Shown piece after piece: positions 1 through 19,769 of a stretch of DNA of 24,011 bases. The stretch covers positions 1 to 24,011 of IMG/VR virus record IMGVR_UViG_2744054854_000003; one strand, given 5' to 3'. Position 1 is the stretch's first letter. Each line of letters begins with the position of its first letter. A program made the translations under genes and the position numbers. The stretch comes from a virus. Lineage: Duplodnaviria; Heunggongvirae; Uroviricota; Caudoviricetes. A model generated the notes under the pieces. That model was not told the origin of the DNA. It did no database searches and saw nothing but the letters and a program-made list of their open reading frames with translations.

Positions 1-97
1 TGCTGCTCAGCTAAACAACAGACCGAGAAAGACACTGAAGTTCAAAACACCGAAAGAGATAATTGAAAGGGGTGTTGCATTGACAGATTGAATCTAC

Positions 98-747: not shown

Positions 748-752
748 AATAA

Positions 753-769
753 TAAATTAATTAGTGCAT
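753..769 (-). promoter_or_regulatory. C1 operator-like site (weaker match, TTAGTGCAT variant)
   Basis: Reverse complement ATGCACTAATTAATTTA, about 13 of 17 positions matching the P1 C1 operator consensus ATTGCTCTAATAAATTT (consensus from memory). Confidence 0.3.
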
Positions 770-813
770 ATGTGCTCTTTGATATAGCGCACATTAACAT
801 CGGGAGAATAATT

Positions 814-969
814 GTGTCATCCAAGGCTAATTATGAATCGCTGGCATCGATCATGCCGCGTAATGAACAGGAAGCAGATGCTGTAGTGGACCCGGTAATC
901 GCTGAAATGAATGCTCGCCTGGAGGCTGAATTTGCAGCTGAGAATGAACATACCACCCAGGGCGACTAG
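814..969 (+). CDS. Small hypothetical protein (about 51 aa)
   Basis: GTG at 814 preceded by GGGAG with about 8 nt spacing, in frame with track ORF 772-969. No recognisable domain. Confidence 0.3.
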   Translation: MSSKANYESLASIMPRNEQEADAVVDPVIAEMNARLEAEFAAENEHTTQGD

Positions 970-1573
970 GACTGTTTTTTGTGTCGGTAGCGGTCCGTCA
1001 CTCACTCGTGAGGACTGTGCTGCTATAGAAAAAACTGGCTGTTCAATCATCGCGGTTAACAATTCCTGGCAGATGTTCGATGACATTTATGCCTTATACG
1101 CCGGTGATTTGTCATGGTGGAAGCAATACGGATCCACCATACCGGGAGGGAGATTCCGCAAAGTGACAGCCAACCTGGCGGCGGCGAAATCATTTTCGTT
1201 GGAGTACAGGCGATATTGTGGACCGGCTGAAGGGGTTAATAGCGGCGCGCAGACTATCAGTCTGGCGGCTGAATCAGGGGCTGAAGTAGTTGTATTAGTC
1301 GGCTATGACTGTTCTCTGCAAAACGGCCTTCATTGGCATGGAGCACACCCTCAAGCCCTACGGAATCCTACGCAGGTGTCTATTTCAAAATGGCAACAGC
1401 AGTTCCTGGATACCCGCAAAAAACACGCAGATTTACATATTTTGAATGCAAGTAGGAGCAGTGCAATTCAATGTTTCCCAAGAATAAATTTAGAGGCAGT
1501 GATCGCGTTATTATCGTCGGCAGTGGCCCAAGCGCCGCAAACTTTGTTGCGCCGCGCGGAGTGCCGATTATAG
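944..1573 (+). CDS. Hypothetical protein, paralogue A of a tandem pair (GSGPS...IAVN...LVGxD motifs)
   Basis: Track ORF 911-1573 with a likely start at ATG 944 (MNIPPRATRTVFCVGSGPS). Shares an ordered motif set with the next gene. A Rossmann-like or DUF115/MptE-like fold is a tentative guess only. Confidence 0.5.
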   Translation: MNIPPRATRTVFCVGSGPSLTREDCAAIEKTGCSIIAVNNSWQMFDDIYALYAGDLSWWKQYGSTIPGGRFRKVTANLAAAKSFSLEYRRYCGPAEGVNSGAQTISLAAESGAEVVVLVGYDCSLQNGLHWHGAHPQALRNPTQVSISKWQQQFLDTRKKHADLHILNASRSSAIQCFPRINLEAVIALLSSAVAQAPQTLLRRAECRL

Positions 1574-2097
1574 CGGTCAATGGGGCCATCGACTGGCTGA
1601 ACCGCGCTTCTTATTTTTTCACACTTGATCCATCGCCAGACAATATGCGGCGCGTTGGTCGTGGCCGCCGTCGCCGTGGTGTTTGTTATTGCATGGCACT
1701 ACCCGATGTTAAAGAACGTGAAGTCAGAGATGGCGTTCTGTGCTTCCGTCGTGTGGCTGAACGCGGCACAGAGCCAAAAAATACGAATTCTCCCGAGTGG
1801 TGGGCGTGGCGCTGGTCCGCACATTTCGGCCTTTGCGAAGATGAGAATGAAATTTCCAGCGGCAATAGTGCATATGGTGCTCTGAACCTGGCTTTCCATA
1901 TCGGATTCAAACATGTAGCCCTTGTGGGCGTTGACGCTACGCAAGAACTACGCGTTCACTCCGGCGGCACGCCAAAAAATCTAAGTCACCTGCCTTTGTT
2001 ATTCCAGTCTGCGCGTGAACAGATTGACGTTGTTTCATGCGGGAAAATGGGAGGTATTCCGCAGATGACTCTTAAAGAATGGCTGAAGAATACATGA
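1471..2097 (+). CDS. Hypothetical protein, paralogue B of the tandem pair, with an Arg/Gly-rich insert
   Basis: ATG 1471 preceded by AGGAG with about 11 nt spacing. Motifs [18 protein letters not shown] are present, with an extra 34-residue stretch ([12 protein letters not shown]...) relative to paralogue A. Overlaps the end of paralogue A by 103 nt in a different frame. Confidence 0.5.
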
Positions 2098-2771
2098 TGG
2101 CACCCACAATTTATCACCGTATCGACGGTACCAAATACAGGAATGTCTGGGTTGTTGGTGATCTGCATGGTTGCTACACCAGACTGATGTCCGAACTCCA
2201 TCGTGTGGATTTTGACCCGGCGCAGGATTTACTGATATCGGTCGGCGACCTTATCGATCGCGGTACTGAAAATGTCGAATGTCTGGAACTATTGCAGATG
2301 CCCTGGTTCAGGGCAGTGATGGGGAACCATGAGCGGCTGATGATTGATGCGTTAAGTCCAGATGGCAACGTGAATAACTGGCTAATGAATGGCGGACAAT
2401 GGTTCTTCATGCTGGACACTGATCAGGAAATATTAGCCTGGGCGCTGGTGGAGCTGGTAAAGCGTCTGCCCTATATCATTGAGTTGAACACCGGGCAAGA
2501 AACTATCGTTATAGCCCATGCCGACTATCCGGATAATGAATACCAATTCGGTAAGGAGGTGCCGCTTTTCAACGTTGTCTGGGCGCGCGAGCGTATCAGT
2601 GATTCGATGGATGATATTGGTGGCGAAATTTCGGGCGCAGATCGTTTTATCTTTGGTCACACTCCGGTGAAAAGCCCGAAGACATTCTGGAATCAGCAGT
2701 ATATCGACACTGGTGCCGTATTTTGCGGAAACCTGACATTGATGAAAGTGAAAGGTGATGGTGCAGCATGA
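2094..2771 (+). CDS. ppp: Ser/Thr protein phosphatase, lambda-PPase-like metallophosphoesterase
   Basis: GDLHGC, GDLIDRG, GNHE and GHTP motifs, and strong resemblance to lambda phosphatase as I remember it ([15 protein letters not shown]...). Start 2094 taken as an ATGA overlap with the upstream stop; the track start is 2079. The symbol is by analogy to P1 ppp. Confidence 0.85.
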
Positions 2772-3469
2772 AGATTGCTTTAGTTTTTCGCTCTGGTGGT
2801 GACTATAACGCTTCCGATGTGCAGTGGCTGGTTAATCAACTGCCAAAAGGCTATGAAATTATTTGCCTGACAGACCTGAAGCGTTTACATGTACCTGGCG
2901 TCAAAGTTGTCCCATTGATCAACCAGTGGCAAAAGTGCCGTGGCTGGTGGGCGAAAATCGAGTTGTTCCGACCGGATATAACAGATGATCTGTTCTATCT
3001 GGATTTGGACACAGTTATTGCCGGTGATATACGCCCAATCCTTGAGAATCCACCAACCAGCTTCACCATGCTTAGGGATTTTTACCATCCACAATATCGT
3101 GGTAGCGGTGCCCTGTGGATACCAAATAGTGTAAAAGCGCATATCTGGAGTTCATTCTGGCAAGATCCGGAAGGTTGGATTTCTCGTTGTGTCACTACTG
3201 AGTGCTGGGGTGATCAGGGGTTCTTACGGAAGGTTATGGGCGATGATACACCAGCATTTCAGGATCTGTATCCAGGATGGTTTGTAAGTTACAAGGCCGA
3301 TGTTGTGGAACCTGGTTCAAAATATGCGAGCGCGCGTTACTCCAGGGGGAATGGGGCATTACCAAAGGACTGCCGAATAATCTTTTTCCACGGCAAACCG
3401 CGACCTCGCGAAGTGTCAGAGGATTGGCTTCCCCTTATTAGCTCGTTTTTTGAGCGAGAATCAGAATAA
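2768..3469 (+). CDS. Hypothetical protein (pmgQ position), possible glycosyltransferase-like DxD motif
   Basis: 233-aa ORF whose ATG overlaps the ppp stop (ATGA). Contains YLDLDTVI, reminiscent of a nucleotide-sugar transferase DxD motif; this is weak evidence. Confidence 0.55.
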
Positions 3470-3470
3470 T

Positions 3471-3536
3471 ATTGCTCTAATAATTCCATATTTTTAAAAC
3501 GTGATGTACACTCATCACGTTTTTTATTAGAGCAAT
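3471..3536. promoter_or_regulatory. Two inverted C1 operator matches flanking a hairpin
   Basis: ATTGCTCTAATAATTCC at 3471-3487 on the plus strand, and ATTGCTCTAATAAAAAA on the minus strand at 3520-3536. Between them sits a hairpin (AAAACGTGATG / CATCACGTTTT, 3496-3523) followed by a T-run. Confidence 0.6.
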
Positions 3537-3550
3537 CCAAAAGGTGCACT

Positions 3551-3769
3551 ATGTGGCCATTCCGACGGAAATATCACTACTGGCTGATCGCCTTTGTTAC
3601 GCCGACCGGCGGTATCAGGCATGTCATCACCAGGTATCGCAACAAGAGACTCACCTTAGCCAGAATTTTACAGGCTGCCATAGGTGAGGGACTGGATACA
3701 AATTGCGTAGTCCTTCCTCCTTCATACTTAGGAAAAATGACCGAAGCACAAGCTAATACGGAACTTTGA
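3551..3769 (+). CDS. Small hypothetical protein (72 aa)
   Basis: ATG preceded by AAGGTG; ends 1 nt before the next start. No domain recognised. Confidence 0.35.
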   Translation: MWPFRRKYHYWLIAFVTPTGGIRHVITRYRNKRLTLARILQAAIGEGLDTNCVVLPPSYLGKMTEAQANTEL

Positions 3770-3770
3770 A

Positions 3771-5033
3771 ATGAGCACTTCAGCACAAAACCAATCAATC
3801 GAAAATGTATCTATCCCTGATGTCCTGAATGCCGGTATCCCGGCCATTATCCAGAACATCCGGGCCGCGCAACGCCGCGTTAGTTGTGATGACCTCACAG
3901 CACGTTTTTTTGATAATGCGGTTCAGTCAGCGGAGATGCTTCACGCACAGCTTATTGATGTTTATAACGCAGAAGCTGATAGCCATAACTCCCTGGTAGA
4001 TGCAGCTGAAAATATGCAGTTGGATCTCGGTCTGAAGGGTAAAGAAATTGAAGAGCTTCAGCTGGAAATTGAACATTTGAAACGCCAGCAACAGGACGCG
4101 ATCGACGATGCGACGCATGACGCCAACCAGCGTGCTGATAATGCCGAACGTATAAGCATTGAGCTGGAAACAAAACTCAATGAAATGACCGCGATGGTTG
4201 AACTGCGGAACTCACAGATTTCAACGCTAAAATCTCAATATAAAGAGATCATGAAACTTGATCCTTTTAACCTTGAGAAACGCTATAACAAAGCTAAAAG
4301 CGAGCGACAGGAACTGCGTAAGCAGGTCGCTGACCTTAACCAACAGCTCAAAAAAACTATTAAAGATGCAAGCGAAGCGCGCGTGGCATTTGCTAATAAA
4401 AAAGCAGAGGTTACTGCGCTGGTTAATGAGAATGCCAAATTTGCGACGCTCAAGAAGGAAATGTATGGCATTACTGAGCGCCGTTTCCCTGCAAGCAAAC
4501 TTCATCCGACGTTAGGGCAAATCTCCTTCTTCCCGCGCCTCCTGGCTTATGGGATCTCATCGCCTAAAGAGTTCAATAACGAGCGTCCTTATATCGTTTC
4601 TAAGCTGGACTTTGCTTATCAGTTCTGCTGCGACATGGGCTATGCCATTGATATCCGGATCAACGAATGGCTGATGCCAAACTTCCAGCCGTTGGCCATT
4701 TTCCGCGAGTTCCAGCCGGAAGGTTGGGTAGAGTTCTTCCATGAATTGATCTGTAAAGAGATGGAAAGCCGCCGCCCGGAACTGGTCCGTCGAGTTGAGT
4801 GGGCGCAAGAGGTTATGTTGGCAGAGGCAGAGCTGCCGTTCGAACCGGAATTTATTGATAATCTGGCAGCTAAAGGGCTGCATACCCTGTTTGATGTGGT
4901 TACCCGCCGTCATGAGCAGTTGGTTGTCGAATTGGGTTTAGAGGAAACAGCGGCAAGAAGACTTCTCGATGTTTGCTATGCACGTAGCGATGCATGGGAA
5001 AAAGAGAACGGCGGCACTATTTACGTTCGCTGA
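3771..5033 (+). CDS. Hypothetical protein with a coiled-coil-rich N-terminal half (420 aa)
   Basis: Long ORF with heptad-like charged composition in residues about 60-230 (LQLEIEHLKRQQQ..., QELRKQVADLNQQLKK). The C-terminal half is unrecognised. Confidence 0.6.
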   Translation: MSTSAQNQSIENVSIPDVLNAGIPAIIQNIRAAQRRVSCDDLTARFFDNAVQSAEMLHAQLIDVYNAEADSHNSLVDAAENMQLDLGLKGKEIEELQLEIEHLKRQQQDAIDDATHDANQRADNAERISIELETKLNEMTAMVELRNSQISTLKSQYKEIMKLDPFNLEKRYNKAKSERQELRKQVADLNQQLKKTIKDASEARVAFANKKAEVTALVNENAKFATLKKEMYGITERRFPASKLHPTLGQISFFPRLLAYGISSPKEFNNERPYIVSKLDFAYQFCCDMGYAIDIRINEWLMPNFQPLAIFREFQPEGWVEFFHELICKEMESRRPELVRRVEWAQEVMLAEAELPFEPEFIDNLAAKGLHTLFDVVTRRHEQLVVELGLEETAARRLLDVCYARSDAWEKENGGTIYVR

Positions 5034-5105
5034 TAGTTACAGTGTCACTTTTAATGCTGGTGGAGTGCTCCCACCAGCATTTTTTTCGTCCAATGAGGAG
5101 GGCAT

Positions 5106-5612
5106 TTGAGTATTTTCAATAAACACGCACACCAGGAACGTCCGTACATCGTCATAGTAGATATTGATGGGACGATATCAGAGGCAACGGAAGACAGGCT
5201 GCATTTACTTCCACCACCTGGCAAAGGTGCATTAACAGAGCACTGGAACGAGTTTAACCTTGCCTGTGACACTGATGCTCCCATCACTCCAGTTATTGAT
5301 ATGGTGCGCCAGTTATTTAACGTTTACACGGTCTGGTTTGTAACCGGGCGCTGTGAGATCGCAAGGGATAAAACACGAGCCTGGCTGCGGAAGTACGTAA
5401 CAAACGGGGCTGAGCCTTTGCTATCTATGCGTCCTGCCACCGATGACAGAAATGACGGTCCAGCAAAGATTGATCTCCTGAAGAAAATTGGTCTAAGTAA
5501 AATTGCGTTCGCGCTGGAAGATAAGATTGAAGTGGCGCGTGTGTTCAGGAGTCATGGCGTACTTACATTAATGGTCAGGGAGTATGAAAATGCGCTTCTT
5601 CATCAACAATAA
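5106..5612 (+). CDS. HAD-superfamily phosphatase-like protein
   Basis: TTG start preceded by GAGGAG with 6 nt spacing. N-terminal VIVDIDGTIS matches the HAD DxDG(T) motif I; motif II-like VWFVTGR follows. Possibly equivalent to P1 pap, by position. Confidence 0.6.
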   Translation: MSIFNKHAHQERPYIVIVDIDGTISEATEDRLHLLPPPGKGALTEHWNEFNLACDTDAPITPVIDMVRQLFNVYTVWFVTGRCEIARDKTRAWLRKYVTNGAEPLLSMRPATDDRNDGPAKIDLLKKIGLSKIAFALEDKIEVARVFRSHGVLTLMVREYENALLHQQ

Positions 5613-5628
5613 TTGTTCTAATAAATCT
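5612..5628 (+). promoter_or_regulatory. C1 operator-like site
   Basis: ATTGTTCTAATAAATCT, 15 of 17 matches to the consensus. It overlaps a possible -35 TTGATT (5627-5632) with a -10-like TAAAAA 17 bp downstream. Confidence 0.5.
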
Positions 5629-5650
5629 TGATTTTTAAAACAGAGAAAGT

Positions 5651-5683
5651 AAAAATAAAAACATGCCGCAAGGCGCGGCATGT
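5651..5683 (-). terminator. Rho-independent terminator, effective on the minus strand (hsdR operon end)
   Basis: 8-bp GC-rich stem CATGCCGC / GCGGCATG with a 5-nt loop. On the minus strand it is followed by a long U-run (plus-strand AAAAATAAAAA at 5651-5661); the plus-strand side has only TTT. Confidence 0.6.
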
Positions 5684-5710
5684 TTCCAATCAATCACAGG
5701 AGCTGAAAAT

Positions 5711-5797
5711 ATGAACACGGCATTCAAAATCATTATGGCCGCGATCTATTTCTGGCTGTTCTCTATCACTTTTGACGGCATCGTCGCGCATGGGTAA
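5711..5797 (+). CDS. Candidate small hydrophobic peptide (28 aa, MNTAFKIIMAAIYFWLFSITFDGIVAHG)
   Basis: ATG at 5711 with AGGAG at 5698-5702 (8 nt spacing). A single predicted transmembrane-length hydrophobic stretch. Below the ORF-track size cutoff; unproven. Confidence 0.3.
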   Translation: MNTAFKIIMAAIYFWLFSITFDGIVAHG

Positions 5798-5876
5798 GGG
5801 GAGTATATTAGCCATTTGGAACCCCACGAGCTCTTGCGGGTTTAATTAAGAACCCGCAAGAAAAACACGAATTGGG

Positions 5877-8800
5877 CTATATTTTTCCGCCTACGCCTTT
5901 AAACTTCTCAATAAACGAGACGATTTTCTGGAAAACTGCCTGTTTTTTCGTTTTATATTGCGGATTCAACGGACTAAGTTTTGGTAATGTTTCGTTTAAT
6001 TCTGTGCCATTTTCGGTGGCGTATTCGCGTTTTAAAGACGTGCGAATATAGCGTTTTGCTGCATCTTCATTGAGATTTTCTTCTTTTATCAATGCTTCTG
6101 CTTCACGTTGCTGTTCGCGTTGAGCAAACGTAAAGAATGCCTCAATGATACTGGCTTTGTCTGGTAAATCATCCAGGTTCGTTTGCTGAATAAAATCGAC
6201 CACCAGGCCCTCTTTCGCCCGGTTCCCCAGGCTTGAACGAATTAAGCGTTTGACCTCTTCGATCATTTCGCCCTTGCCTTTATTTTGTCTGTTGTGTTCG
6301 AAAATCAGTCCAAGGATATAATCCAGGTTTATTTCCTGAGACTTCAGCAAATCGACCTCAAAAACCACGTCATCCCAGTCAGTGGTTGATTTTTCTTTTT
6401 TATCAGCTTCTTTCTCGCGGCGCTGCCAGTCGCGAATATCGTTATAGGCAGAACGATAATCCTGAATCTTGCGATCAGCAGGGAGACGAATTGTTTGCAA
6501 TTCAGCGAACTTTTCATCATCCACATAATGTTCTGCTTTGAATTTTTCTACCGCAACAGGATCGCTAAGATCGATTTGTTGCAGGGCTTTTAGCGTGGCA
6601 AATTCATCATAGTTTTGCAGGATGTTCTCGGCACGCAGGTATTCGCCAAACAGTTTAACGAAGTCTTTCTTCTCTTTTTCACTTTCAATACTGGTAGGGT
6701 CAGGGAACCGTTGTTCCAGTTCTGAAACTACTGTCATGAAGCCGCGTTTAGCTTCACCAGTAGCAGCATCAGTAAAGCCTTCCATATACTCTGTATAACT
6801 CTTTTCTAACACCACATTTTTGGTGTTTTTGTCACCAAACAGCGTTATGGCATCAATAGTTGAGCGTTCCAGATCCCGGAAAGTGACGATATTACCGAAG
6901 GTTTTAGTTGCATCATAAATACGGTTGGTGCGGGAAAATGCCTGCATCAGGCCGTGAAAACGCAAGTTTTTATCGACGAATAGCGTGTTCAATGTTGGAG
7001 CATCGAAGCCGGTTAAAAACATCCCCACGACAATTAGCAGATCGATATCCTGATTTTTAACCCGCTGGGCTAAATCACGATAGTAGTTCTGAAAACCGTT
7101 ACTGTCGGTGCTGAAGTTAGTTTTAAAATGGCTGTTATATTCACGAATTGCAGCGTCCAGAAACTCTTTAGCACTGCTGTCCATTGCGCTGGTATCAAAA
7201 GTTTCATCGGAAATTTCACCAATGGCATTTTGTTCTTCATTAGCGGCAAAGGAGAAGATTGTCGCAACACGCAGCGGTTTATAGGTAGCCGATTTATTAG
7301 CGGCTTCCTCTTGTAACCGTTTAAACGTCGCATAATAGGCTTTTGCAGCATCCACGCTGCTTACTGCCAACATAGCATTAAAACCTTTTGAGCCAGGGAA
7401 GGTACGGTGGGTTTTCTGGCGGAAATTATTCAGAATATATTGCGTGATTTCCTGAATACGCATGGGATGAAGAAACGCCTGCTGATTTTCAGCCGCACTT
7501 AGTTTTTTCTCGTCAGTTTCTGTCTCTAAAGACTTAAACTGTGGCCGCACATCGTTGTAGTCCACCTTGAATTTGAGCACTTTTTCGTCACGAATCGCAT
7601 CGGTAATTACATACGAATGCAATTCACGACCAAATACGCTGGCGGTTGTTTCTGAGCCTAAGGCGTTTTCCGGGAAAATAGGGGTGCCGGTAAAACCAAA
7701 CTGATAATAGCGTTTGAATTTCTTCTTCAGGTTTTTCTGCGCTTCTCCAAACTGGCTGCGGTGGCATTCATCAAATATAAACACCACTTGCTGATTATAT
7801 ACAGGCAGGTCGCTTTCTGCTTTCATCAGGTTATTGAGTTTCTGAATAGTAGTGACGATAATTTTGTTATCGTCCTTATCCAGATTTCGTTTAAGGCCTG
7901 CGGTATTTTCCGAGCCGTTGACGCTGTCTGGCGAAAAACGCTGATATTCCTTCATGGTCTGGTAATCGAGGTCTTTCCTGTCGACCACAAAGAAGACTTT
8001 ATCAATAAAGTCCAGCTCTGTTGCCAGACGCGCGGCTTTAAAGCTGGTGAGGGTTTTACCAGAACCGGTAGTGTGCCAGATATACCCACCGCTTTCCGGT
8101 TTTGACCAGTTCTTCGCTGTAAAGGAACTCTTAATTTTCCACAGAATGCGCTCGGTGGCAGCAATCTGGTACGGTCGCATCACCAGTAGTGTCTGACTAC
8201 TGTCAAACACGCTGTAGTTCACCAGAACATTCAGCAGAGTATGTTTCTGGAAAAAGGTGGCGGTAAAGTCTTTGAGGTCTTTAATCAGCGTGTTGTCTGA
8301 TTTCGCCCAGTTCATGGTGAAGTCAAAACTGTTTTTATCGCGCTTTGTCGTGTTGGCAAAATAACGGGTATCGGTGCCGTTGGAAATGACGAACAGCTGC
8401 AGATACTTAAACAGGGAATTTTCGCTGTTAAAACTCTCTTTACTGTAACGATGTATCTGGTTGAAAGCCTCACGAATCGCCACCCCGCGTTTTTTTAGTT
8501 CGATTTGCACCAGCGGTAAACCATTAACCAGGATCGTGACGTCATAACGGTTAGCATGAGAACCCGTCTGTTCAAACTGCTGGATAATCTGCACCTTATT
8601 GCGCATGAGATTCTTTTTATCTATCAAATAGATGTTCTCAAGTCGCCCGTCGTCAAAAATAAAGTCGCAGATATAGTCGATATGGATTTTACGGGTTTTA
8701 TCCAGAATACCATCGCTGGGGTTGTCCAGATACTGCTCCGTGAAGCGCCGCCACTCGCTGTCATTAAACATCACACCATTGAGGCTCTGAAGCTGTTCCC

Positions 8801-8993
8801 GAACATTGGACAGCATTGCCGACTGTGATTTTACGGAAATAAATTCATAACCCTGATTCCGCAGGTCCTGAATCAGTTCACGTTCCAGGTCCGATTCGCT
8901 CTGGTAGCTGTCGCTTGTTTGCTCAGCTTTGATGTACTTATCAAGGACGATAAAGTTATTGGATTCAGCAATGGTGTGTGTTTGATGAGTCAT
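5877..8993 (-). CDS. hsdR: Type I restriction enzyme R subunit (1038 aa)
   Basis: Walker A ([12 protein letters not shown]) and DEAD-type box ([12 protein letters not shown]) helicase motifs. The length matches EcoR124I HsdR as I recall it. Has its own upstream intergenic region of 121 bp. Confidence 0.9.
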
Positions 8994-9114
8994 AGCGCAT
9001 CCTTTGTGCCGCCTGGCAAGAGCCGGAAGGGCGTTAAGAGTGACTTCCGGCGCGTAAAAAATAGTCTATATACTGACCGGGTGTTAAGGTGGCCCGATCG
9101 GTAGCAATGGTCAA

Positions 9115-10317
9115 TTAATTACTGACAGTTTCAGGTTTCGGGAAACTGAAAAGTAAATCACGGTAGTATTCGTATTGTTTCTGGCGCAACTCGATTTCAC
9201 GCGGAAGGCCTTCGGTGATGGAGTTTGTCAGGTTGTAAAATTTATCCATCGTGGCGACGATATAAAGTTGTTCATCGTATGATGGGATAGGTATTTCAAA
9301 TGCTCTCAACGATTTTAAACCTAAGTTTTTAATAGTTGAACCTGTTTTTTGATTTTCAAAATACTGTTTTGCGTAATTGGTTTGCAGGAAATAGAAAAGA
9401 TATCTAGTGTGGAGTTCAGGTGATTTAATTTTAAAATAGGCCACAGACTTACCGAGTACGATCTTCTCATTATTGTAAAAGGAAACATTTCCAATTGTGC
9501 CATTAATTGACAGGAAAACAGTATTTATTGGGTCAAAATGAATTCCGTGTTTTTTAAACATAGAATCATTAACCTTTTTTGTGTTATCGTTAAATGATAT
9601 TTTTTGATAGCCTAAATTGTTTCCATTGATAAAGAAATAATCACCGTTGGCGTCATATTCTGGAGTACCATGCAAACCGTCTCCAATTACACATAGCTCT
9701 CCTAATTTCAGACGTTTAACATCGTGGGCACCAAAACTAAATAACCGGTCGCGATAGTAGTTGTACTGTTTTTTACGCATGTTAAGCTCAGCGGTAAGCT
9801 CAGCGGTAAGTGCAGTAAATTTGTCCAGAATCCGAACGATTTCAGACTGGATGGCAAGGGATTTTTCCGGATTATCCGGGCAGGGGATTGGTACAGGTAT
9901 CTCAATTAATTGTCCTTTAGTTAATTTTGCCCTTCCTCCCCCGGTAAGGAAGGGAAGGAAATTAACGATGCATAAATAATGATATAGAAATCTAGAATGA
10001 ACTCTTTCTTTTCCTCGTACGACATGAACATGGTTGTTTGCCCAGAATTTACCAGTTGCATATTGAATTGAATAATTTTCTAAACTAGCCGAGCCATCTT
10101 CTGCAATTAAGACATATTCACCATCGTGGGTATATCCATCCACATAGTCTTGAATGTTGTTAGCACCATAATAGGGCGTCTCGCCTGCAATGCGCAAAGA
10201 GGCTTTTACTGGCTTTCTTCCATTATTCGCTATTTCGAAGAGTGAAGTATCACCAAGATTTCTCCACTCAACTTCAACCCCATCCAGCAATTTTTCCAGA
10301 TAACTTAACTCGCTCAT
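9115..10317 (-). CDS. hsdS: Type I R-M specificity subunit (400 aa), type IC-like
   Basis: Central conserved region with a TAELTAEL repeat, and the duplicated YYRD(R/L)LFSF motif at mid-protein and C-terminus, as in EcoR124-family HsdS. Its start overlaps the hsdM stop. Confidence 0.9.
9784..9816 (-). repeat. 12-bp tandem repeat (2 copies plus a degenerate third) encoding TAEL-TAEL in hsdS
   Basis: AAGCTCAGCGGT occurs twice (9784-9795 and 9796-9807), followed by AAGTGCAGT. The minus-strand translation is [11 protein letters not shown]. Confidence 0.85.
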
Positions 10318-11876
10318 TTCTGCACCTCGCAGCCTTCAATTTCAGCCACAATCGCATCAATATCTTTACGCAACAGGTCGATTTTGCTGACCGTGGTTTT
10401 CAGCTCTGCGTTCAACTCAGCAATATCGATAATTTCGCGGTTATCTTTCGCTTCCACATAGCTGCTCACCGACAGGTTATAGTCATTAGCGACAACGGTC
10501 TCAAACGCGACAGATTTCGCCAGATGAGCAACATCTTCCTTGCTGGCAAATACCTGCATAATCTGTTCGATATGGGCATCGGTCAGGGTATTGTTGTTAG
10601 TTTCTTTTTTAAACAGCTCGCTGGCATCAATAAACTGAACTTTGGTATCCGTTTTATGTTTAGACAGCACCAGAATGTTTACGGCAATAGTGGTGCCAAA
10701 GAACAGATTCGGTGCCAGTGAAATCACGGTTTCGACATAGTTATTGTCGACCAGATACTGACGGATTTTCTGCTCTGCGCCGCCACGGTAAAAAATACCC
10801 GGGAAGCAGACAATCGCAGCACGACCTTTGGCAGAAAGATAGTTCAGCGCATGTAGTACAAAGGCGAAGTCAGCTTTTGATTTGGGGGCCAGAACGCCAG
10901 CAGGGGCAAAACGTTCATCGTTAATCAGCGTCGGGTCATCACTGCCAATCCATTTCACCGAATATGGCGGGTTAGAAACGATGGCATCAAACGGTTTTTC
11001 ATCTCTGAAGTGCGGCTCAGTCAGCGTATTGCCCAGCTTGATATCAAACTTGTCGTAGTTGATGTTGTGCAAAAACATGTTCATACGCGCCAGGTTATAG
11101 GTCGTATGGTTGATCTCCTGACCAAAAAAGCCTTCTTCGATGATATGGTCATCAAACTGCTTTTTCGCCTGTAACAACAGCGAACCGGAACCTGCGGCTG
11201 GGTCGTAGATTTTGTTAACGTGGGTCTGCCCGTGCATAGCCAGTTGTGCAATCAGCTTAGAGACATGCTGCGGTGTAAAAAACTCGCCGCCTGACTTACC
11301 AGCATTCGCCGCATAGTTAGAAATCAGGAACTCATAGGCATCGCCGAACAGGTCAATCTGATGTTCGTTGAAGTCACCAAGTTTTAACCCTTCAACCCCT
11401 TTCAGAACCGCAGCCAGGCGGGCATTTTTATCCTTAACGGTGTTACCCAGGCGGTTACTGGTGGTATCGAAATCAGCAAACAAACCTTTGATGTCAGCTT
11501 CTGAAGGGTAACCGTAAGCAGAACTTTCGATAGCAACGAAGATACTGTTTAAATCTGCATTCAGTCTGTCATTGGTATTTGCTTTCGCAGCTACGTTGCA
11601 GAAAAGCTGACTTGGGTAGATGAAGTAGCCTTTAGTTTTGATGGCATCGTCTTTAATGTCATCAGTAATTACGCTGTCATCCAGTTTCGCATAACAGATA
11701 CTGTCATCACCGGCTTCAATATAGCTGGAAAAATTTTCGCTGATAAAACGGTAGAAAAGTGCGCCCAGAACGTATTGCTTAAAATCCCATCCATCGACCG
11801 AACCCCTGACATCGTTAGCAATTTGCCAGATTTGACGATGAAGCTCTGCACGTTGTTGAATACTTGTCATTTTCAT
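10314..11876 (-). CDS. hsdM: Type I R-M N6-adenine DNA methyltransferase subunit (520 aa)
   Basis: NPPY motif (SNPPYSVKW), AdoMet-binding glycine-rich motif ([10 protein letters not shown]), and a typical HsdM N-terminus. The length matches EcoR124I HsdM as recalled. Confidence 0.9.
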
Positions 11877-12015
11877 CCACTTATTTCAGGCTTATGTAAT
11901 TGGATGTGATTCTACAGCAACTTGGATGCTTTAGCAGTTCGGACATTAGGCTACGAATGACCTGCCTAGAGGTTTGTTAAGCCGCAAAGTGCTGGTGCTT
12001 TATGCCTGTGAAGTT

Positions 12016-12052: not shown

Positions 12053-12274
12053 ATGCAATCCATTAACTTCCGTACCGCGCGCGGCAACCTTTCTGAAGTG
12101 CTCAACAATGTTGAAGCCGGGGAAGAGGTTGAAATCACCCGCAGAGGCCGTGAGCCAGCAGTAATTGTCAGCAAGGCTACTTTCGAAGCCTACAAAAAAG
12201 CGGCGCTGGATGCTGAATTTGCATCCCTGTTTGACACCCTGGACTCCACCAACAAGGAACTGGTTAACCGATAA
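12053..12274 (+). CDS. phd: Antitoxin Phd (73 aa)
   Basis: [56 protein letters not shown]... recognised as P1 Phd. Its stop overlaps the doc start (TAATGA). Confidence 0.9.
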
Positions 12275-12654
12275 TGAGGCATATATCACCGGAAGAACTT
12301 ATTGCGCTTCATGATGCGAATATAAGCCGCTACGGCGGCCTGCCGGGAATGTCAGATCCGGGCAGGGCAGAGGCCATTATCGGGAGAGTCCAGGCCAGAG
12401 TTGTGTACGAAGAGATCACCGACCTTTTCGAAGTCTCCGCCACCTACCTGGTGGCTACTGCGAGAGGGCATATATTCAATGATGCCAATAAGCGTACCGC
12501 GCTAAACAGTGCGCTGTTATTTCTACGCCGTAACGGGGTGCAGGTATTTGATTCACCTGAACTGGCAGACCTTACTGTAGGCGCTGCGACTGGCGAGATA
12601 TCTGTATCTTCTGTCGCCGACACGTTACGTAGATTGTATGGTTCTGCGGAGTAG
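12274..12654 (+). CDS. doc: Toxin Doc (126 aa), Fic-fold kinase
   Basis: Fic motif HIFNDANKR is present. Length and position immediately after phd match P1 doc. Confidence 0.9.
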
Positions 12655-12658
12655 ATTA

Positions 12659-12838
12659 ATGGCACGCAAATACAACAAATTGTCCCGTGAAGCGTTAAAG
12701 ATGCTTCTTGATGGCGTGAGTCGCCGCAAGGTAAAGCAATACCTGGTTGGTAAGCAAATTGGAGTCAGGACCGCTATTGCTGTGTTATGCCGTCAGGAAA
12801 TGGTTGCGCTTAAACAGAGAATGCCGGGCAGCAGATAA
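12659..12838 (+). CDS. Small hypothetical protein following doc (about 59 aa, basic)
   Basis: ATG 12659 is in frame within track ORF 12638-12838 (MARKYNKLSREALKMLLDG...). Possibly pdcA, by position only. Confidence 0.4.
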   Translation: MARKYNKLSREALKMLLDGVSRRKVKQYLVGKQIGVRTAIAVLCRQEMVALKQRMPGSR

Positions 12839-14535: not shown

Positions 14536-15729
14536 GTGACCTGGGACGATCACAAGAAGAATTTTGCTCGCCTGGCGCGAGATGGTGGTTACACCATCGC
14601 ACAGTATGCCGCCGAGTTTAATCTTAACCCTAATACCGCACGTCGTTATCTCCGTGCCTTCAAAGAAGACACCAGGACTGCGGACAGCCGCAAGCCAAAT
14701 AAGCCAGTCAGGAAGCCACTAAAAAGCATGATCATTGATCACTCTAATGATCAACATGCAGGTGATCATATTGCGGCTGAAATAGCGGAAAAACAGAGAG
14801 TTAATGCCGTTGTCAGTGCCGCAGTCGAGAATGCGAAGCGCCAAAATAAGCGCATAAATGATCGTTCGGATGATCATGACGTGATCAACCGCGCCCACCG
14901 GACCTTACGTGATCGCCTGGAACGCGACACCCTGGATGATGATGGTGAACGCTTTGAATTCGAAGCTGGCGATTACCTGATAGATAACGTTGAAGCGCGG
15001 AAGGCCGCGCGCGCTATGTTGCGTCGGTCCGGGGCCGATGTTCTGGAAACCACTCTTCTTGAAAAGTCTCTTTCTCATCTCCTTATGCTGGAGAACGCCA
15101 TGGATACGTGTATTCGCCTGGTGCAGGAAATGCGCGATCAGCAAAAAGACGATGATGAAGGTACTCCGCCTGAATACCGTATCGCGAGCATGCTAAACAG
15201 CTGTTCCGCGCAGATAAGCAGTCTGATCAACACCATTTACAGCATCCGGAATAACTATCGAAAAGAAAGCCGGGAGGCGGAAAAGCACGCTTTGTCTATG
15301 GGGCAAGCTGGCATTGTTAAGCTGGCATACGAACGAAAGCGTGAAAATAACTGGTCAGTGCTGGAAGCAGCTGAATTCATCGAGGCGCATGGCGGGAAAG
15401 TGCCGCCCCTGATGCTGGAGCAAATCAAAGCAGATCTGCGTGCTCCTAAGACAAATACCGATGATGAGGAAAGGCAAACTGCCGTCGGTGGCCCTTCTCT
15501 TGAAGATCTGGACAAAGTTGCGCGAGAACGGGCCGCCAACCGCCGCGCCGATGCTGCATTGTGGATTGAGCAACGTAGGGAAGAAATCGCCGATATCGTT
15601 GATACAGGCGGTTATGGAGATGTTGATACTGAAGGTGTATCAAACGAACCATGGCTGGAACAAGACCTGGACGAAGACGAGGAGGAAGACGAAGAAGTTA
15701 CCCGCAAGCTATACGGGGATGATGATTAA
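14536..15729 (+). CDS. pacA: Terminase small subunit PacA (397 aa), contains the pac site
   Basis: GTG start with AAAGGAAG upstream. 397 aa as in P1 PacA. The GATC-hexamer pac site lies inside it, and the acidic C-terminal tail overlaps the pacB start. Confidence 0.85.
14729..14887 (+). other. pac packaging site: two clusters of GATC hexamers (4 plus 3)
   Basis: GATC at 14730, 14737, 14749 and 14764 (left cluster) and at 14860, 14872 and 14883 (right cluster), each mostly within a TGATCA/G hexamer. This matches the known 4+3 architecture of the P1 pac site. Confidence 0.85.
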
Positions 15730-17213
15730 TGGCCAGAAGTTGCGTAACGGATCCACGTTGGCGCGAGCTGGTGGCGCTATATCGTTATGACTGGATTGCG
15801 GCCGCTGATGTTTTGTTCGGCAAAACACCTACCTGGCAGCAGGATCTGATTATTGAGTCTGTGCAGGAACAGGGTAGCAAGACATCTGTTTCGTCTGGCC
15901 ACGGTACCGGGAAATCAGACATGACTTCTATCATGATCATGTTGTTCATAATCATGTATCCCGGTGCCCGAGCCATTATCGTTGCGAACAAAATTCAGCA
16001 GGTAATGACCGGTATATTCAAGTACATCAAGATAAACTGGGCTACTGCCACCAGCCGTTTTCCATGGCTTGCTGATTATTTTGTTCTGACAGAAACCGCT
16101 TTCTATGAGGTTACTGGTAAAGGTGTATGGACTGTAGTACCGAAGGGCTTTCGTCTGGGAAGTGAAGAAGCTCTCGCCGGTGAACACGCAGATCATCTTC
16201 TGTATATTATCGATGAAGCCTCCGGTGTCAGTGATAGAGCTTTCGGTATCATCACCGGTGCTCTTACCGGACAGGATAACCGCATCTTATTGCTGTCACA
16301 GCCTACACGCCCAAGCGGCTATTTCTACGATACACACCATAAACTGGCCAAGCGTCCTGGTAACCCTGATGGCGTTTATACGGCGATCACGCTTAACAGT
16401 GAGGAATCACCGTTGGTAACGCCAGCATTTATCAAAATGAAGCTGGCGGAGTACGGCGGGCGTGATAACCCTATGTACATGATTAAGGTACGCGGCCTAT
16501 TCCCTAAATCACAGGATGGCTTCCTTCTTGGACGTGATGAGGTTGAACGTGCAACGCGGCGGAAAGTCAAGATTGCAAAAGGATGGGGCTGGCTTGCATG
16601 TGTGGACGTTGCTGGTGGTACGGGACGGGATAAGTCCGTTATCAATATCATGATGGTGTCCGGCCAGCGAAATAAACGCCGTGTAATCAACTATCGAATG
16701 CTGGAATACACAGACGTTACAGAAACGCAGCTTGCCGCCAAAATTTTCGCAGAATGTAATCCTGAGCGATTCCCAAATATCACCATAGCGATAGACGGCG
16801 ATGGCCTGGGTAAAGCAACGGCGGATCTGATGTACGAGTATTATGGTATTACCGTACAGCGCATACGCTGGGGTAAAAAGATGCATAGCCGTGAAGATAA
16901 GAGCCTGTACTTTGATAAACGTGCTTATGCCAACGTTCAAGCCGCAGAGGCCGTAAAATCTGGTCGTATGAGACTGGATAAGGGTAATGAAACTATTGAG
17001 GAAGCGTCGAAAATCCCTGTAGGGATTAACTCCGCAGGTCAATGGAAGGTGATGAGTAAGGAGGATATGAAGAAAAAACTCAACCTGCACTCACCAGACC
17101 ATTGGGATACATATTGTTTCGCTATGCTGGCGGATTATGTTCCCCAGGATGAAGTGCTTAGCGTCGAAGACGAAGCGCAGGTTGATGAAGCTCTGGCATG
17201 GCTTAATGAGTAA
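15729..17213 (+). CDS. pacB: Terminase large subunit PacB (494 aa)
   Basis: 494 aa, with its start overlapping the pacA stop (TAATG). Size and position match P1 PacB. Confidence 0.85.
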
Positions 17214-17219
17214 AAAAAA

Positions 17220-17236
17220 CTTGCTCTAATAAATTG
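17220..17236 (+). promoter_or_regulatory. C1 operator at the start of the antirepressor module
   Basis: CTTGCTCTAATAAATTG, 15 of 17 matches. It is followed by TTGACT at 17244-17249. Confidence 0.6.
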
Positions 17237-17366
17237 CGTTTTTTGACTGCCGATGTTACATTGAACCTGACCTCTTGCGCCTTGAGGCATTTTCGGTTTA
17301 TGCTTATCAGGCACCTCATTAAAACGGGTGCCGGGATTGGCCTCCCGCTTAAGTCTAAGGCGATAC

Positions 17367-17389
17367 AGACGCCGCTCGCGTCTTTTTTT
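17367..17389 (+). terminator. Intrinsic terminator or attenuator hairpin with a 7-T run
   Basis: Stem AGACGC / GCGTCT with a 5-nt loop, followed by TTTTTTT (17383-17389). Lies in the leader between the operator and the 74-aa gene. Confidence 0.5.
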
Positions 17390-17554
17390 GTATCGGCGTA
17401 CACGCACACCTCTACAATGGTGGGCTGTATGGGGCTACCTTCGGGTAGGCTGGTTACCTTGGACGCCAGTAAGGCCAACTCCGTACAGTCCACCGCCAGC
17501 AAGATTGGTCTCTTCTGCGGTGGTTACATACCAACGTCTAAGGAGGCTGCCATT

Positions 17555-17776
17555 ATGGCTACTATCCCTACCCCAACTCATCCTGAATTTATCTGGCGCT
17601 TTTACTCCTGCCAGAAACGTCACTATCACTTCGTTATCGCAACAACAGAAGATGAGGCACGTTCTCAGCTTCCGGATGCTCCCTGCATTTTCTCCGCACG
17701 CTTTTCTACTGACTCGCGCAATTCTCTCAGTTACTGGTGCCTCCCTGTTAACGCTTCTGTTCAGGAGGGGCTATGA
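17555..17776 (+). CDS. Small protein (74 aa) translationally coupled to the antirepressor gene (icd-like position)
   Basis: Strong SD AAGGAGG 8 nt upstream of ATG 17555. Its stop overlaps the ATG at 17773 (ATGA). An in-frame upstream ATG at 17418 is possible. Confidence 0.5.
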   Translation: MATIPTPTHPEFIWRFYSCQKRHYHFVIATTEDEARSQLPDAPCIFSARFSTDSRNSLSYWCLPVNASVQEGL

Positions 17777-18885
17777 GAACGTCATTAGTCACCCGTGAAG
17801 AGATGATCGAGGCAATTGAACCGCACACAATCTGTATCAGCACCAGGGATATTCCCGGTGTTATAGCCAATTACTTCATGATCACCAAACAACTCTACAG
17901 GAGAAAGGACAAGAACGCGGTTCACCGTATCCTGCTGTCTGATATCCGCGAATACCTGCTCGAACAGGGGCATCTGAATTACGCAACCGTCGCAGCCGAA
18001 ACACGCAAGGAGGCACACAGAATGAAAGCTACTAACGTTAAATCAGAAAAAGTTCATGCACCTTCAGTTCAGGAATCAGAGCTGGTGGTTGTTCAAAATC
18101 AGCCTGATGAAATTCCCGTTCTGGAATGGCAGGGAGTACGCGTCGTAACGACCGAAACTCTTGCTAAGGGGTATGGAACCGAAACTAATAACATCAAAGT
18201 TAACTATACGCGTAATGCTGATCGCTTTGAGGAAGGTAAACATTACTTTCTACTAACTGGTTCAAAATTAAGAGAATTGAAGGACAAGGTTACTCAAAGT
18301 AACTTAGTCGCACCGCGAGCAAAGCACCTCACTCTCTGGACGGAGCGTGGCGCAGCCCGCCACGCTAAAATGCTCGAAACCGATCAGGCATGGGCATTCT
18401 TTGAAAAACTGGAAGACAGCTACTTCCGGCAAAAAGAACAGCAACCGGTTGCAATCCCCCAGACGCTTCCAGAAGCTCTGCGCCTGGCTGCCGAGTTGGC
18501 TGAACAAAAGCAGCTACTGGAACAGAAGGCCCACCAGCTAAATCAACAACTGGTGGCCGCAGCCCCCAAGGTCGATTTTGCCGACCGGGTATCAGTAGCT
18601 AAAGGGATCCTGATTGGGAATTTTGCAAAGGTTGTTGGACTTAAGCAAAACGCGCTGTTTGCCTGGTTACGGGAGAACGGCATCCTGATTGCGTCCGGCG
18701 GACGTAAAAATGTGCCGTTCCAGCAGTACATCACCGCGGGGTATTTCACGGTGAAAGAAGTGGTGCTGGATGATGAAGATGGCTACCAGATACGGTTGAC
18801 GCCTCAATTAACGGGTAAAGGCCAGCAGTGGTTAACTCGCAAGCTACTTGATGCTGGCTTGTTAAAACCGGTGGCGGCTGAATAA
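17773..18885 (+). CDS. ant: Antirepressor-like protein (ORF6N-like and ANT/KilAC-like domains), nested in-frame starts giving 370 aa and 287 aa
   Basis: Middle region RNADRFEEGKHYFLL resembles ORF6N. C-terminal LFAWLRENGILIASGG...YITAGYFTVKE resembles the phage antirepressor ANT domain. A second in-frame ATG at 18022 has a strong SD (AAGGAGG). The symbol is tentative. Confidence 0.65.
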   Translation: MRTSLVTREEMIEAIEPHTICISTRDIPGVIANYFMITKQLYRRKDKNAVHRILLSDIREYLLEQGHLNYATVAAETRKEAHRMKATNVKSEKVHAPSVQESELVVVQNQPDEIPVLEWQGVRVVTTETLAKGYGTETNNIKVNYTRNADRFEEGKHYFLLTGSKLRELKDKVTQSNLVAPRAKHLTLWTERGAARHAKMLETDQAWAFFEKLEDSYFRQKEQQPVAIPQTLPEALRLAAELAEQKQLLEQKAHQLNQQLVAAAPKVDFADRVSVAKGILIGNFAKVVGLKQNALFAWLRENGILIASGGRKNVPFQQYITAGYFTVKEVVLDDEDGYQIRLTPQLTGKGQQWLTRKLLDAGLLKPVAAE

Positions 18886-18917: not shown

Positions 18918-19769
18918 TTATTGCGCGCTTTCGGGGTTGTCGTTTACTGGCTGCCCCTTCTTGGTTTTACGGCTGCGCGTAACTGATGCGGCTGACTTAA
19001 CCTTTTTCTCTTCGCGAGTGATGGCAATTTGTTTTTTTACATTTTCAATATCTGCCAGGCGATATATTTTTGCTTGCGGCCAGCGGTCGCAGATGATCGG
19101 TTCTATGGAGTCATAAAGGCTAAATTTTGCTTTTTCGAATTCACCGTTGATGATAATTCCATCACGGAGAGTTTCATCGCAGATAAACACGCCACACAGT
19201 GGCACATGGTAACTAACTGATTTACCATCATTGTAGTTAGGGCTACTGGAAATGTAGTGGACGCGCAGCATTGTTTCGCTAAAGCCGTGTACGCGCATAC
19301 GGAATTTTTCATCCTCCGGGTACTGCTTCATTAGCTCTTTTGTTGCTTCCAGGTTCTCTATGTATTTCGCACTGTGCTCATTGATCCCCGCGCTTTTTTG
19401 GATGCGAATGTCCTTATCAATCAGATGAATAATGCGGCCAGCGGTCATGTTGACGCTGTTCACAGCTTCTGTCTGATAAGTTGTAACCTTGCGAACACCG
19501 CGAAGGATGTTAGGCACTGGATATAAAATAGTCTTTGGGATATTGAGGTCTGGGTACTGTTCCAGTTCCCGCGCCATTAAAGTCCATTTATCAATTTCAG
19601 CCTGAATGCTGTCAGTTTCTTTGAACGGTAGAACGACAACCGGGCGTACAGGACGACCGTCGCTGGCTGTATCAACGTGTTGGGCGCGTGCAACAGCTTT
19701 TTTTAGAAAGAGATCCCTGAAGCTGACGAACTCCTGGTACAGTTGTTCGCCGTAGACATAATTTATCAT
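18918..19769 (-). CDS. c1: C1 repressor of lysogeny (283 aa)
   Basis: MINYVYGEQLYQEFVSFRDLFLKKAVARAQHV... recognised as P1 C1; 283 aa. Convergent with pacB and the antirepressor gene. Confidence 0.9.
   Translation of the reverse strand: MINYVYGEQLYQEFVSFRDLFLKKAVARAQHVDTASDGRPVRPVVVLPFKETDSIQAEIDKWTLMARELEQYPDLNIPKTILYPVPNILRGVRKVTTYQTEAVNSVNMTAGRIIHLIDKDIRIQKSAGINEHSAKYIENLEATKELMKQYPEDEKFRMRVHGFSETMLRVHYISSSPNYNDGKSVSYHVPLCGVFICDETLRDGIIINGEFEKAKFSLYDSIEPIICDRWPQAKIYRLADIENVKKQIAITREEKKVKSAASVTRSRKTKKGQPVNDNPESAQ

Follow-up and report, generated by a model that had tools for sequence, protein, structure and literature searches.

The DNA analysed here is a 24,011-nucleotide (nt) virus sequence, IMG/VR record IMGVR_UViG_2744054854_000003 (hereafter the window), which represents a P1-family phage-plasmid of the genus Punavirus. 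Its best relative is Escherichia phage vB_EcoM-673R5 (97% identity over 93% of the length), and it shares 96% identity with P1 and P7 over about half of the window length. Between pacB and c1 the window carries, in this order, a C1-operator-like site, an isrK-type leader, a C4 antisense RNA, an icd homologue, and an antirepressor gene (Table 1). We conclude that this P1-family phage-plasmid most probably has here a second antisense immunity module resembling immI, with a C4 repressor and an IsrK-type decoy leader, which was inserted between pacB and c1. It is a known kind of system, present here as a new allele and a second copy, and it involves no new mechanism.

An Rfam scan of the whole window returned exactly two matches over the curated cut-offs, C4 and isrK. 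The initial annotation of this region had placed a c4-like RNA in the leader of the antirepressor operon, behind an operator-like site, where it would occlude the downstream ribosome-binding site (RBS) as in P1. At the sequence level this layout is confirmed for the icd-ant operon, and the covariance-model search suggested at that time does detect C4. However, the full-length C4 match covers what had been described as a downstream UUCG hairpin and CCACCGC arm, whereas the stretch originally proposed, ending near 17389, is the isrK/a1-b1 leader. A conserved GGU is found at the predicted 5′ end of C4 (17419) and, together with a length matching that of P1 C4, speaks for processing by RNase P. 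The leader contains its characteristic parts in order, namely hairpin 1, the a1 hairpin, b1, and an intrinsic terminator, the last of which had been located correctly.

Folded as a whole, the region has a z-score of −3.36, and none of 100 shuffled sequences is as stable. C4 alone reaches z = −3.72, and its minimum free energy (MFE) structure is the three-helix form in which a long closing stem surrounds two hairpins, one with a tetraloop and one with a large loop. In 29 distinct C4 homologues among the matches listed, 100% of the cells are paired and 10 of 20 pairs are compensatory, whereas only 31–43% remain paired when the partners are slid by one to three columns as a control. The outer 7 base pairs (bp) of the closing stem were excluded from these counts; 78-nt C4 types have a 3-nt bulge. 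The isrK-like part alone shows no unusual stability (z = −0.97), and its support therefore comes from the covariance model and covariation rather than from stability, with the MFE fold in agreement with its helices. For the leader hairpins, the terminator, and the a2 hairpin together, 94% of the cells are paired in 31 homologues among the matches listed, and 7 of 22 pairs are compensatory; taken singly, the terminator helix is 100% paired (compensatory changes in 2 of 4 pairs) and the a2 hairpin 94.5% (3 of 7).

Table 1. Features of the pacB–c1 interval of the window.
Feature	Position	Strand	Description
pacB	15729-17213		Upstream neighbour of the module
C1-operator-like site, CTTGCTCTAATAAATTG	17220-17236	+	15/17 match to P1 operator ATTGCTCTAATAAATTT; aligned with annotated P1 Oc4 (Oc4/Op51 position)
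Putative operator-overlapping promoter, TTGCGT-17 nt-TACATT	17234-17262	+	Chosen by eye, aligned with P1 promoter P2c4/P51a
Putative isrK-type promoter, TTGCGC-18 nt-TATGCT	17275-17304	+	Chosen by alignment; predicted start near G17311
isrK-type leader (a1-b1 target mimic), RF01394	17311-17389 (model match 17311-17388)	+	60.8 bits, cut-off 50, E = 5.6e-11
Leader hairpin 1	GCACC 17311-17315 / GGUGC 17327-17331	+	Extendable to GGCACC 17310-17315 / GGTGCC 17327-17332
a1, UUGGCCU	17337-17343	+	Loop of hairpin CGGGA/UCCCG (17332-17347); complementary to a′
b1, GUCUAAGG	17353-17360	+	Complementary to C4 loop b′
Intrinsic terminator	17367-17389	+	Terminator scan; stem 17367-17383, AGACGC-CGCUC-GCGUCU, then U7/T-run to 17389
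C4 antisense RNA, RF01695	17413-17500	+	75.9 bits, cut-off 45, E = 1.8e-13; full-length, model positions 1-87
Mature C4, predicted	about 17419-17494	+	Length 76 nt; ends predicted from the annotated P1 C4 (77 nt)
b′, CCUUGGACG	17457-17465	+	Loop of C4 hairpin 2; unpaired in MFE fold
a′, AGGCCAA	17472-17478	+	Single-stranded C4 junction; unpaired in MFE fold
a2, UUGGUCU	17505-17511	+	Loop of hairpin CCACCGC 17490-17496 (C4 3′ arm) / GCGGUGG 17517-17523
b2, CGUCUAAGG	17535-17543	+	Overlaps icd Shine-Dalgarno GGAGG 17542-17546; same arrangement as annotated P1 b2
icd homologue	17555-17776	+	73 amino acids (73 codons + stop); 82% identity to P1 Icd
Antirepressor gene	17773-18885	+	370 amino acids; Pfam ANT (ANT/KilAC) 109 bits, ORF6N 74 bits
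c1	18918-19769	−	Downstream neighbour of the module

Six recognition sites, two each in the leader (a1, b1), in C4 (b′, a′), and upstream of icd (a2, b2), are complementary to one another. The C4 loop b′ can form 8 bp with b1 and 9 bp with b2, with one G·U in each case, and a′ can form 7 Watson–Crick bp with a1 and 7 bp with a2, one of which is a G·U pair. The match between a1 and a′ extends over 17332-17343 and 17472-17483, where complementarity is 83% and 11 of 12 positions pair if G·U is counted. The motif GATTGGYCTC occurs twice against 0.09 expected occurrences, a count reached in 0 of 100 shuffles. A repeat of GTCTAAGG noticed earlier is weak when considered alone (0.39 expected; two copies reached in 6 of 100 shuffles), and it proves meaningful in that its copies are b1 and b2, both complementary to b′. 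The first copy lies where it had been reported (17353-17360); the second is at 17536-17543 and not at 17534-17541. All the other motifs listed in the initial annotation are likewise present, although several of its coordinates are shifted, by 0–8 nt. Thus, the GGCACC/GGTGCC hairpin with its 11-nt loop is the extended hairpin 1 of Table 1 rather than a structure at 17302-17326, CTACC-TTCG-GGTAG is found at 17435-17448 (about 17436-17449 in the earlier reading), and the 7-bp stem CCACCGC/GCGGTGG, previously given as about 17489-17522, is the stem of the a2 hairpin.

Two further pairings were observed in the predicted folds. In the MFE fold of the full leader, b1 and the bases following it (17353-17367) can pair with 17389-17403 past the U-run of the terminator (15 nt, 80% complementary); b1 would thus be free in a terminated small RNA (sRNA) and masked in a read-through transcript. 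When C4 is taken out of the transcript, the rest of the mRNA is predicted to fold such that the pyrimidine tract adjoining a2 on its 3′ side, GGUCUCUU (17507-17514), pairs with AAGGAGGCU (17541-17548) in the Shine-Dalgarno region. This tract reads CCUCC or CCUCUG in other allele groups, and it could represent a conserved cis-acting anti-Shine-Dalgarno sequence whose pairing register differs between allele groups.

The operator-like site upstream of the leader is one of nine 17-mers in the window that resemble the C1 operator with at most three mismatches, against 0.11 expected, which is an approximately 80-fold enrichment. These candidate sites are located at 3471, 3520 (minus strand), 5612, 13911, 17220, 19864 (minus strand), 20328 (minus strand), 20411, and 22443, and they may mark a C1 regulon across the window; the site at 17220 alone belongs to the module. 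The putative isrK-type promoter aligns with TTGACT-N18-TATATT of the Shiga toxin 2 (Stx2) phage F039 and with TTGACA...TATATT of Gifsy-1 isrK and is weaker than both. Another candidate promoter at TACAAT (17413-17418) was dropped, as its transcript would begin inside C4 and no usable −35 element precedes it. The sequence CTGCCGATGTTACAT (17247-17261), which covers the putative −10 element of the operator-linked promoter, recurs with 80% identity as the direct repeat CTGCGGTGGTTACAT (17515-17529) immediately behind the a2 hairpin; this repetition may be due to chance.

The gene following the RNA elements, first described as encoding 74 amino acids, has 73 codons and a stop, and this stop overlaps the start of the antirepressor gene in the sequence ATGA (17773-17776). 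The predicted antirepressor shares 55% identity overall with P1 Ant1 and is much more alike in the C-terminal third, whereas its central domain is ORF6N, unlike that of P1. An internal AAGGAGG (18007-18013) followed by an in-frame ATG at 18022 resembles the start of P1 ant2.

Judging from P1, P7, and Gifsy-1, the module may operate as follows. Transcription would begin just downstream of the putative C1 operator and would be under C1 control. The first ~79 nt (17311-17389) would constitute the IsrK-type leader, in which a hairpin loop exposes a1 and b1 follows directly on the 3′ side, and a part of the transcripts would end at the terminator (17389). Read-through transcripts would carry C4 (~17419-17494), which RNase P may release by a cut at the 5′ GGU, before G17419, as it does in P1. 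Acting in trans on the same operon, C4 is expected to place b′ on b2 over the icd Shine-Dalgarno sequence and a′ on a2 and thereby to block translation of icd, and also that of ant because its start lies in the ATGA overlap with the icd stop. The leader, either within the long transcript or as a terminated sRNA, would present the decoys a1 and b1, which compete for C4 and could relieve repression. By analogy with the known systems, the a and b sequences would determine the specificity of immunity.

This decoy role of 17311-17389 is the best-supported reading in view of the data on Gifsy-1 IsrK and of an older proposal for P1, in which the a1/b1 sites are competitors of a2/b2 for binding C4. 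In Gifsy-1, some transcripts end at the terminator and yield the sRNA, others read through to become the mRNA, and IsrK supplied in trans raises translation of the antirepressor more than 100-fold (Hershko-Shalev et al., 2016). Within the isrK family, which Rfam describes as Hfq-binding, accumulation as a short sRNA, binding to Hfq, and this activation in trans are known for Gifsy-1 only. In P1 and P7, the trans-acting immunity factor is a processed 77-nt C4 RNA produced by RNase P processing. Rho-dependent polarity on ant has reportedly also been described in P1.

Several observations weigh against this interpretation. A consensus promoter scan of 17000-18000 found none at threshold, and the hexamers chosen by eye are weak. 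An intrinsic terminator separates the promoters from c4, making C4 output dependent on read-through, and the a2–a′ duplex contains a G·U wobble. The c4-a1b1 motif (RF03163) scored only 20.5 bits in a permissive scan, against a cut-off of 46.7, at 17298-17351 where it overlaps isrK; it reaches 55–56 bits in the canonical immI of P7 and 673R5 and 48.1 bits in Gifsy-1. The window does show the layout by which this motif is described: a pair of hairpins, the second of which carries a1 in its loop, and b1 directly after it, located ~60 nt upstream of C4. Furthermore, mutations of a1 in cis raised translation in Gifsy-1, which a pure decoy model does not foresee and which the authors attributed to alternative mRNA folds.

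The published model for Gifsy-1 is a structural switch in cis within the long mRNA: the leader sRNA remodels this mRNA in trans, and the C4-shaped element is only a part of the mRNA instead of a processed trans-acting repressor. Its experimental basis is native gels, mutations, and 30S protection of the homologous isrK-orf45-anrP RNA, and in the window it is consistent with the extended a1–a′ match and with the capacity of the C4 3′ arm to pair alternatively downstream, forming the a2 hairpin. However, the processed 77-nt C4 of P1 and P7 acts in trans, and a processed STnc1160 RNA of ~80 nt also accumulates in Salmonella. Moreover, in all alleles among the matches listed, changes in a′ and b′ are accompanied by changes in a2 and b2, which indicates selection for pairing between C4 and its target downstream. 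As the sole explanation of the module, the cis switch is unlikely, and it does not exclude repression by C4, with which it could operate jointly.

An alternative reading is that the region is coding and that the functional product is a protein of the “Ash family” or orf45 type, translated from ATG 17417 (not 17418, as stated initially) and fused in frame to icd (119 amino acids). This open reading frame (ORF) is indeed open and in frame with icd in the window, the first 58 residues match Pfam Phage_ASH (PF10554; 35.3 bits against a cut-off of 26), and in identical plasmids the RefSeq annotation from the Prokaryotic Genome Annotation Pipeline (PGAP) has a pseudogene for an “ash family protein” that coincides exactly with C4. 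A tagged orf45 protein (SPA tag, sequential peptide affinity) has also been detected in Salmonella (Hershko-Shalev et al., 2016), although the authors of that study found the nucleotide sequence conserved and the amino-acid sequence not. Against a protein product, P1-type loci have a stop after 14 codons of this frame and other loci after 16–37, several allele groups have the ORF and the gene behind it in different frames, and no Shine-Dalgarno sequence precedes ATG 17417. Substitutions in the C4 region are compensatory for the RNA helices, and changes in a′ and b′ are mirrored in the non-coding a1, b1, and a2, for which coding offers no explanation. A functional protein is therefore very unlikely. 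The C4 region is conserved at the RNA level, and the “Ash” match probably reflects a translated RNA gene, although low-level translation of this ORF may occur as reported for orf45. The Phage_ASH match spans 17417-17590 in the window, covering C4 and the a2–b2 spacer, and the “Ash” observations also concern L131 (1716-1817); the family, or at least its C-terminal half, may itself be a translated RNA gene.

A further view, in which the module is a functionless leftover of a past recombination with a lambdoid or Stx-type prophage and has lost all regulation, is highly improbable. The weak promoters, the absence of the module from P1, and nucleotide similarity to the isrK-C4 regions of Stx phages (79–81%) rather than to P1 immI would be compatible with such an origin, but none of the six recognition sites has lost its match, both icd and ant are intact and remain coupled, the module is widespread at ≥95% identity (see below), and the alleles found at this site in other P1-like phages differ from those of the window yet are consistent within each module. 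Least probable of all is the model proposed initially, in which a 70–130 nt RNA ending at the terminator (~17302-17389) represses icd by pairing of a single-stranded GCCUCC with GGAGGC: the two motifs are complementary (at 17340-17345 and 17542-17547, not at 17337-17342 and 17543-17548), and a terminated leader sRNA is plausible since Gifsy-1 IsrK accumulates as one, but in the conserved fold half of GCCTCC belongs to the a1 hairpin (3′ arm of CGGGA/UCCCG), the Gifsy-1 homologue of the proposed sRNA activates rather than represses, the C4 model matches elsewhere, and GCCTCC is present in only 1 of 31 distinct leaders among the matches listed while nine others have GGAGGC without it. The complementarity appears as a by-product of the a1 allele of the window and the hairpin arm.

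The assignment to a C4 antisense module is further supported by the diversity of alleles. A pattern scan of IMG/VR for the C4 core found at least 120 loci, which together with phage records gave 74 distinct loci. Among these matches listed and phage records, at least 19 a alleles and at least 24 b alleles occur in at least 35 combinations; a1, a′, and a2 match one another in nearly every locus, as do b1, b′, and b2, and cognate runs average 7–10 bp against 5–6 bp for non-cognate ones. This co-variation of the a and b sites points to selection on RNA–RNA recognition and is a pattern that coding constraint does not predict. Two loci with mismatched decoy sites suggest that b1 is less constrained than b2: one (L105) combines b1 of one allele (CAAUAUAG) with b′ and b2 of another (UCACCAAAG), and in the canonical immI of 673R5 (L129, 383-435) b1 has a 2-nt insertion (ACGGGAAUG versus ACGAAUG).

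The a′/b′ sequences are AGGCCAA/CCUUGGAC(G) in the window, CUGUCAA/CACUAAC in P1, and CUGCUAA/CACAAUC in P7, where the alleles of P1, P7, and the P1-like phages RCS47, JL22, and D6 were read by eye from printed sequences. P1 and P7 differ from each other by two bases in a′ and two in b′, which fits the literature in that 4 nt are enough for heteroimmunity. Duplex energies, calculated as the summed best energies of the b′ loop and the a′ junction, range from −19 to −22 kcal/mol for any C4 on its own a2-b2 target, from −9 to −14 kcal/mol for P1 or P7 C4 on each other’s target, and from −8 to −10 kcal/mol for the C4 of the window on the targets of P1, P7, or the 673R5 immI; the column for the JL22 target is inflated (GTG start) and was not relied on. 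The gap between cognate and non-cognate targets is thus at least as large for the window as between P1 and P7, a pair with established heteroimmunity. In a′ and b′ the window differs from P1, P7, and the 673R5 immI, and the module is predicted to be orthogonal to all three. The initial expectation that a c4 sequence unlike those of P1 and P7 would define a new immunity specificity accordingly holds as a prediction from sequence.

The order of elements in the window is similar to that of P1 and P7 immI (Citron & Schuster, 1990), which comprises a C1 operator (in the window a C1-operator-like site), a1, b1, a terminator-like hairpin, c4, a2, b2 over the icd RBS, icd, and an ATGA-coupled ant; the annotated order in P1 is Oc4, promoters P2c4 and P1c4, a1, b1, c4 (77 nt), a2, b2, icd, and ant1/ant2. 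The C4 fold is also the same in P1 and the window, with lengths of 77 and 76 nt. In contrast, P1 immI adjoins sim and kilA-repL, and the leaders of P1 and P7 immI are of the c4-a1b1 type, whereas that of the window is of the isrK type. Searches with blastn in both modes gave no link between the leader of the window and P1/P7 immI; the kinship is seen in layout, Rfam models, and proteins.

The IsrK–orf45/STnc1160–anrP region of Gifsy-1 (Hershko-Shalev et al., 2016) shares with the window the two leader hairpins, a1 in the second loop, b1, and the terminator, followed by C4, a2, b2, and an antirepressor gene, and in both cases the AUGG at the 5′ end of C4 opens an ORF. In the Gifsy-1 sequence (NC_010392), Rfam detected isrK with 79.3 bits, c4-a1b1 overlapping it, and C4 with 69 bits starting 25 nt downstream, and then an antirepressor-like gene follows. 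When Gifsy-1 is counted with A107 as the first AUG, the published substitutions G28A and G31A are in a1 and the compensating C162U and C159U in a′ (pairs G28–C162 and G31–C159); on the same numbering the AUGG at the C4 5′ end is where orf45 starts, and the ~80-nt STnc1160 corresponds to C4. Different from the window, Gifsy-1 lacks icd, its b2 lies on the RBS of the anrP gene, and orf45 ends where anrP starts, whereas the ORF of the window runs in frame into icd. The Gifsy-1 alleles (a UUGGCGU, b UCACCG) also differ, and the Gifsy-1 promoter is a strong one (TTGACA...TATATT) that is not accompanied by a P1 C1 operator.

Beyond P1-like elements, the nearest nucleotide relatives are the isrK-C4 regions of Stx-converting phages, one of which is already annotated with both non-coding RNAs. 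Modules of the Stx2 phage F039 type are 79–81% identical to the window over the leader, C4, and a2b2 and have the same backbone and UUCG loop, but they carry other alleles (UUAGGAC/AAUCAAGG), lack a C1 operator, and reside in lambdoid prophages, with a 187-amino-acid regulator (Rha/Ant-type) in place of icd downstream. RCS47 and JL22 agree with the window in insertion site, upstream operator and promoter sequence, isrK, C4, icd, and ant, and D6 agrees in the order of RNAs and genes. These three differ from the window in a C4 backbone with a GAAA loop (71% identity), a longer spacer between terminator and C4, and their alleles (a UUGAGAC; b GUCAAAGG in RCS47 and GCAAAAGG in JL22 and D6).

Two more distant systems may be compared. 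In P4, the CI RNA (seqA, seqC), cited by the Gifsy-1 authors as a structural homologue of IsrK, is likewise a processed RNA from an untranslated leader that pairs with repeats up- and downstream and holds off lytic genes; unlike C4, it causes transcription termination instead of RBS occlusion, and no antirepressor is involved. The sar RNA of P22 is also an antisense RNA controlling ant but is a true cis-antisense RNA from the opposite strand. Rfam scans with curated and permissive thresholds matched no family of P4 CI or P22 sar in the window.

At the pacB–c1 site, P1 has no module at all: c1 follows directly after pacB, with a 25-bp gap, and immI is 45 kb away. The module of the window therefore does not lie at the canonical map position of P1-type immI (sim, then c4 icd ant, then kilA repL). 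vB_EcoM-673R5 has both a module of the window type and a canonical immI (c4-a1b1 56 bits, C4 72 bits), 47 kb apart. RCS47 and JL22 likewise combine a canonical immI with a second module, and their copy at the pacB–c1 site has other C4 alleles and a different C4 backbone. In phage D6, a related isrK-C4-icd-ant module is located beside ref-like and pmgF-like genes and not at pacB/c1, and for SJ46 a module at the pacB–c1 site is listed from a match in the whole-window search alone. Previously, the insertion between pacB and c1 was recorded only as “two short orfs and ant” (Venturini et al., 2019). At ≥95% identity, the module of the window is present in about 100 PLSDB plasmids and in 131 of 5,426 complete Escherichia coli genomes.

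These results improve the annotation of P1-like elements, in which the C4 RNA gene is labelled an “ash family protein” pseudogene by RefSeq and the module merely as Icd, Roi, or Ant in phage records. They indicate that a subset of these elements may keep a second antirepressor under an RNA lock to which neither P1 nor P7 nor the elements’ own immI should hold the key, and this predicts testable heteroimmunity patterns. The a and b sequences could be used to predict the immunity groups of P1-like plasmids, many of which carry resistance genes. The understanding of how C4 systems work is unchanged. More speculatively, in P1-family phage-plasmids with this insert two orthogonal C4 locks might guard two antirepressors under one C1, with the IsrK-type leader of the second lock released as an sRNA that acts as a sponge of its own C4; freely recombining a/b pairs would then form a combinatorial RNA code that sets superinfection immunity among co-circulating P1-like plasmids in place of the repressor, perhaps with lambdoid cross-talk. 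We regard this broader scenario as possible but doubtful.

Two related records show additional variation. In positions 1-8930 of a 97-kb IMG/VR contig (L061), two c4-icd-ant modules in inverted orientation flank the c1-to-cre segment, one with a P7-like a allele on a P1-type backbone and the other of the same type as in the window; their ant genes are ~90% alike, and the pair could promote rearrangement by acting as inverted repeats. In ON470615 (L125), a related phage record that was compared by similarity with ~5500-12000 and 12100-12800 of the window, hsdR and pacA are each annotated as two coding sequences.

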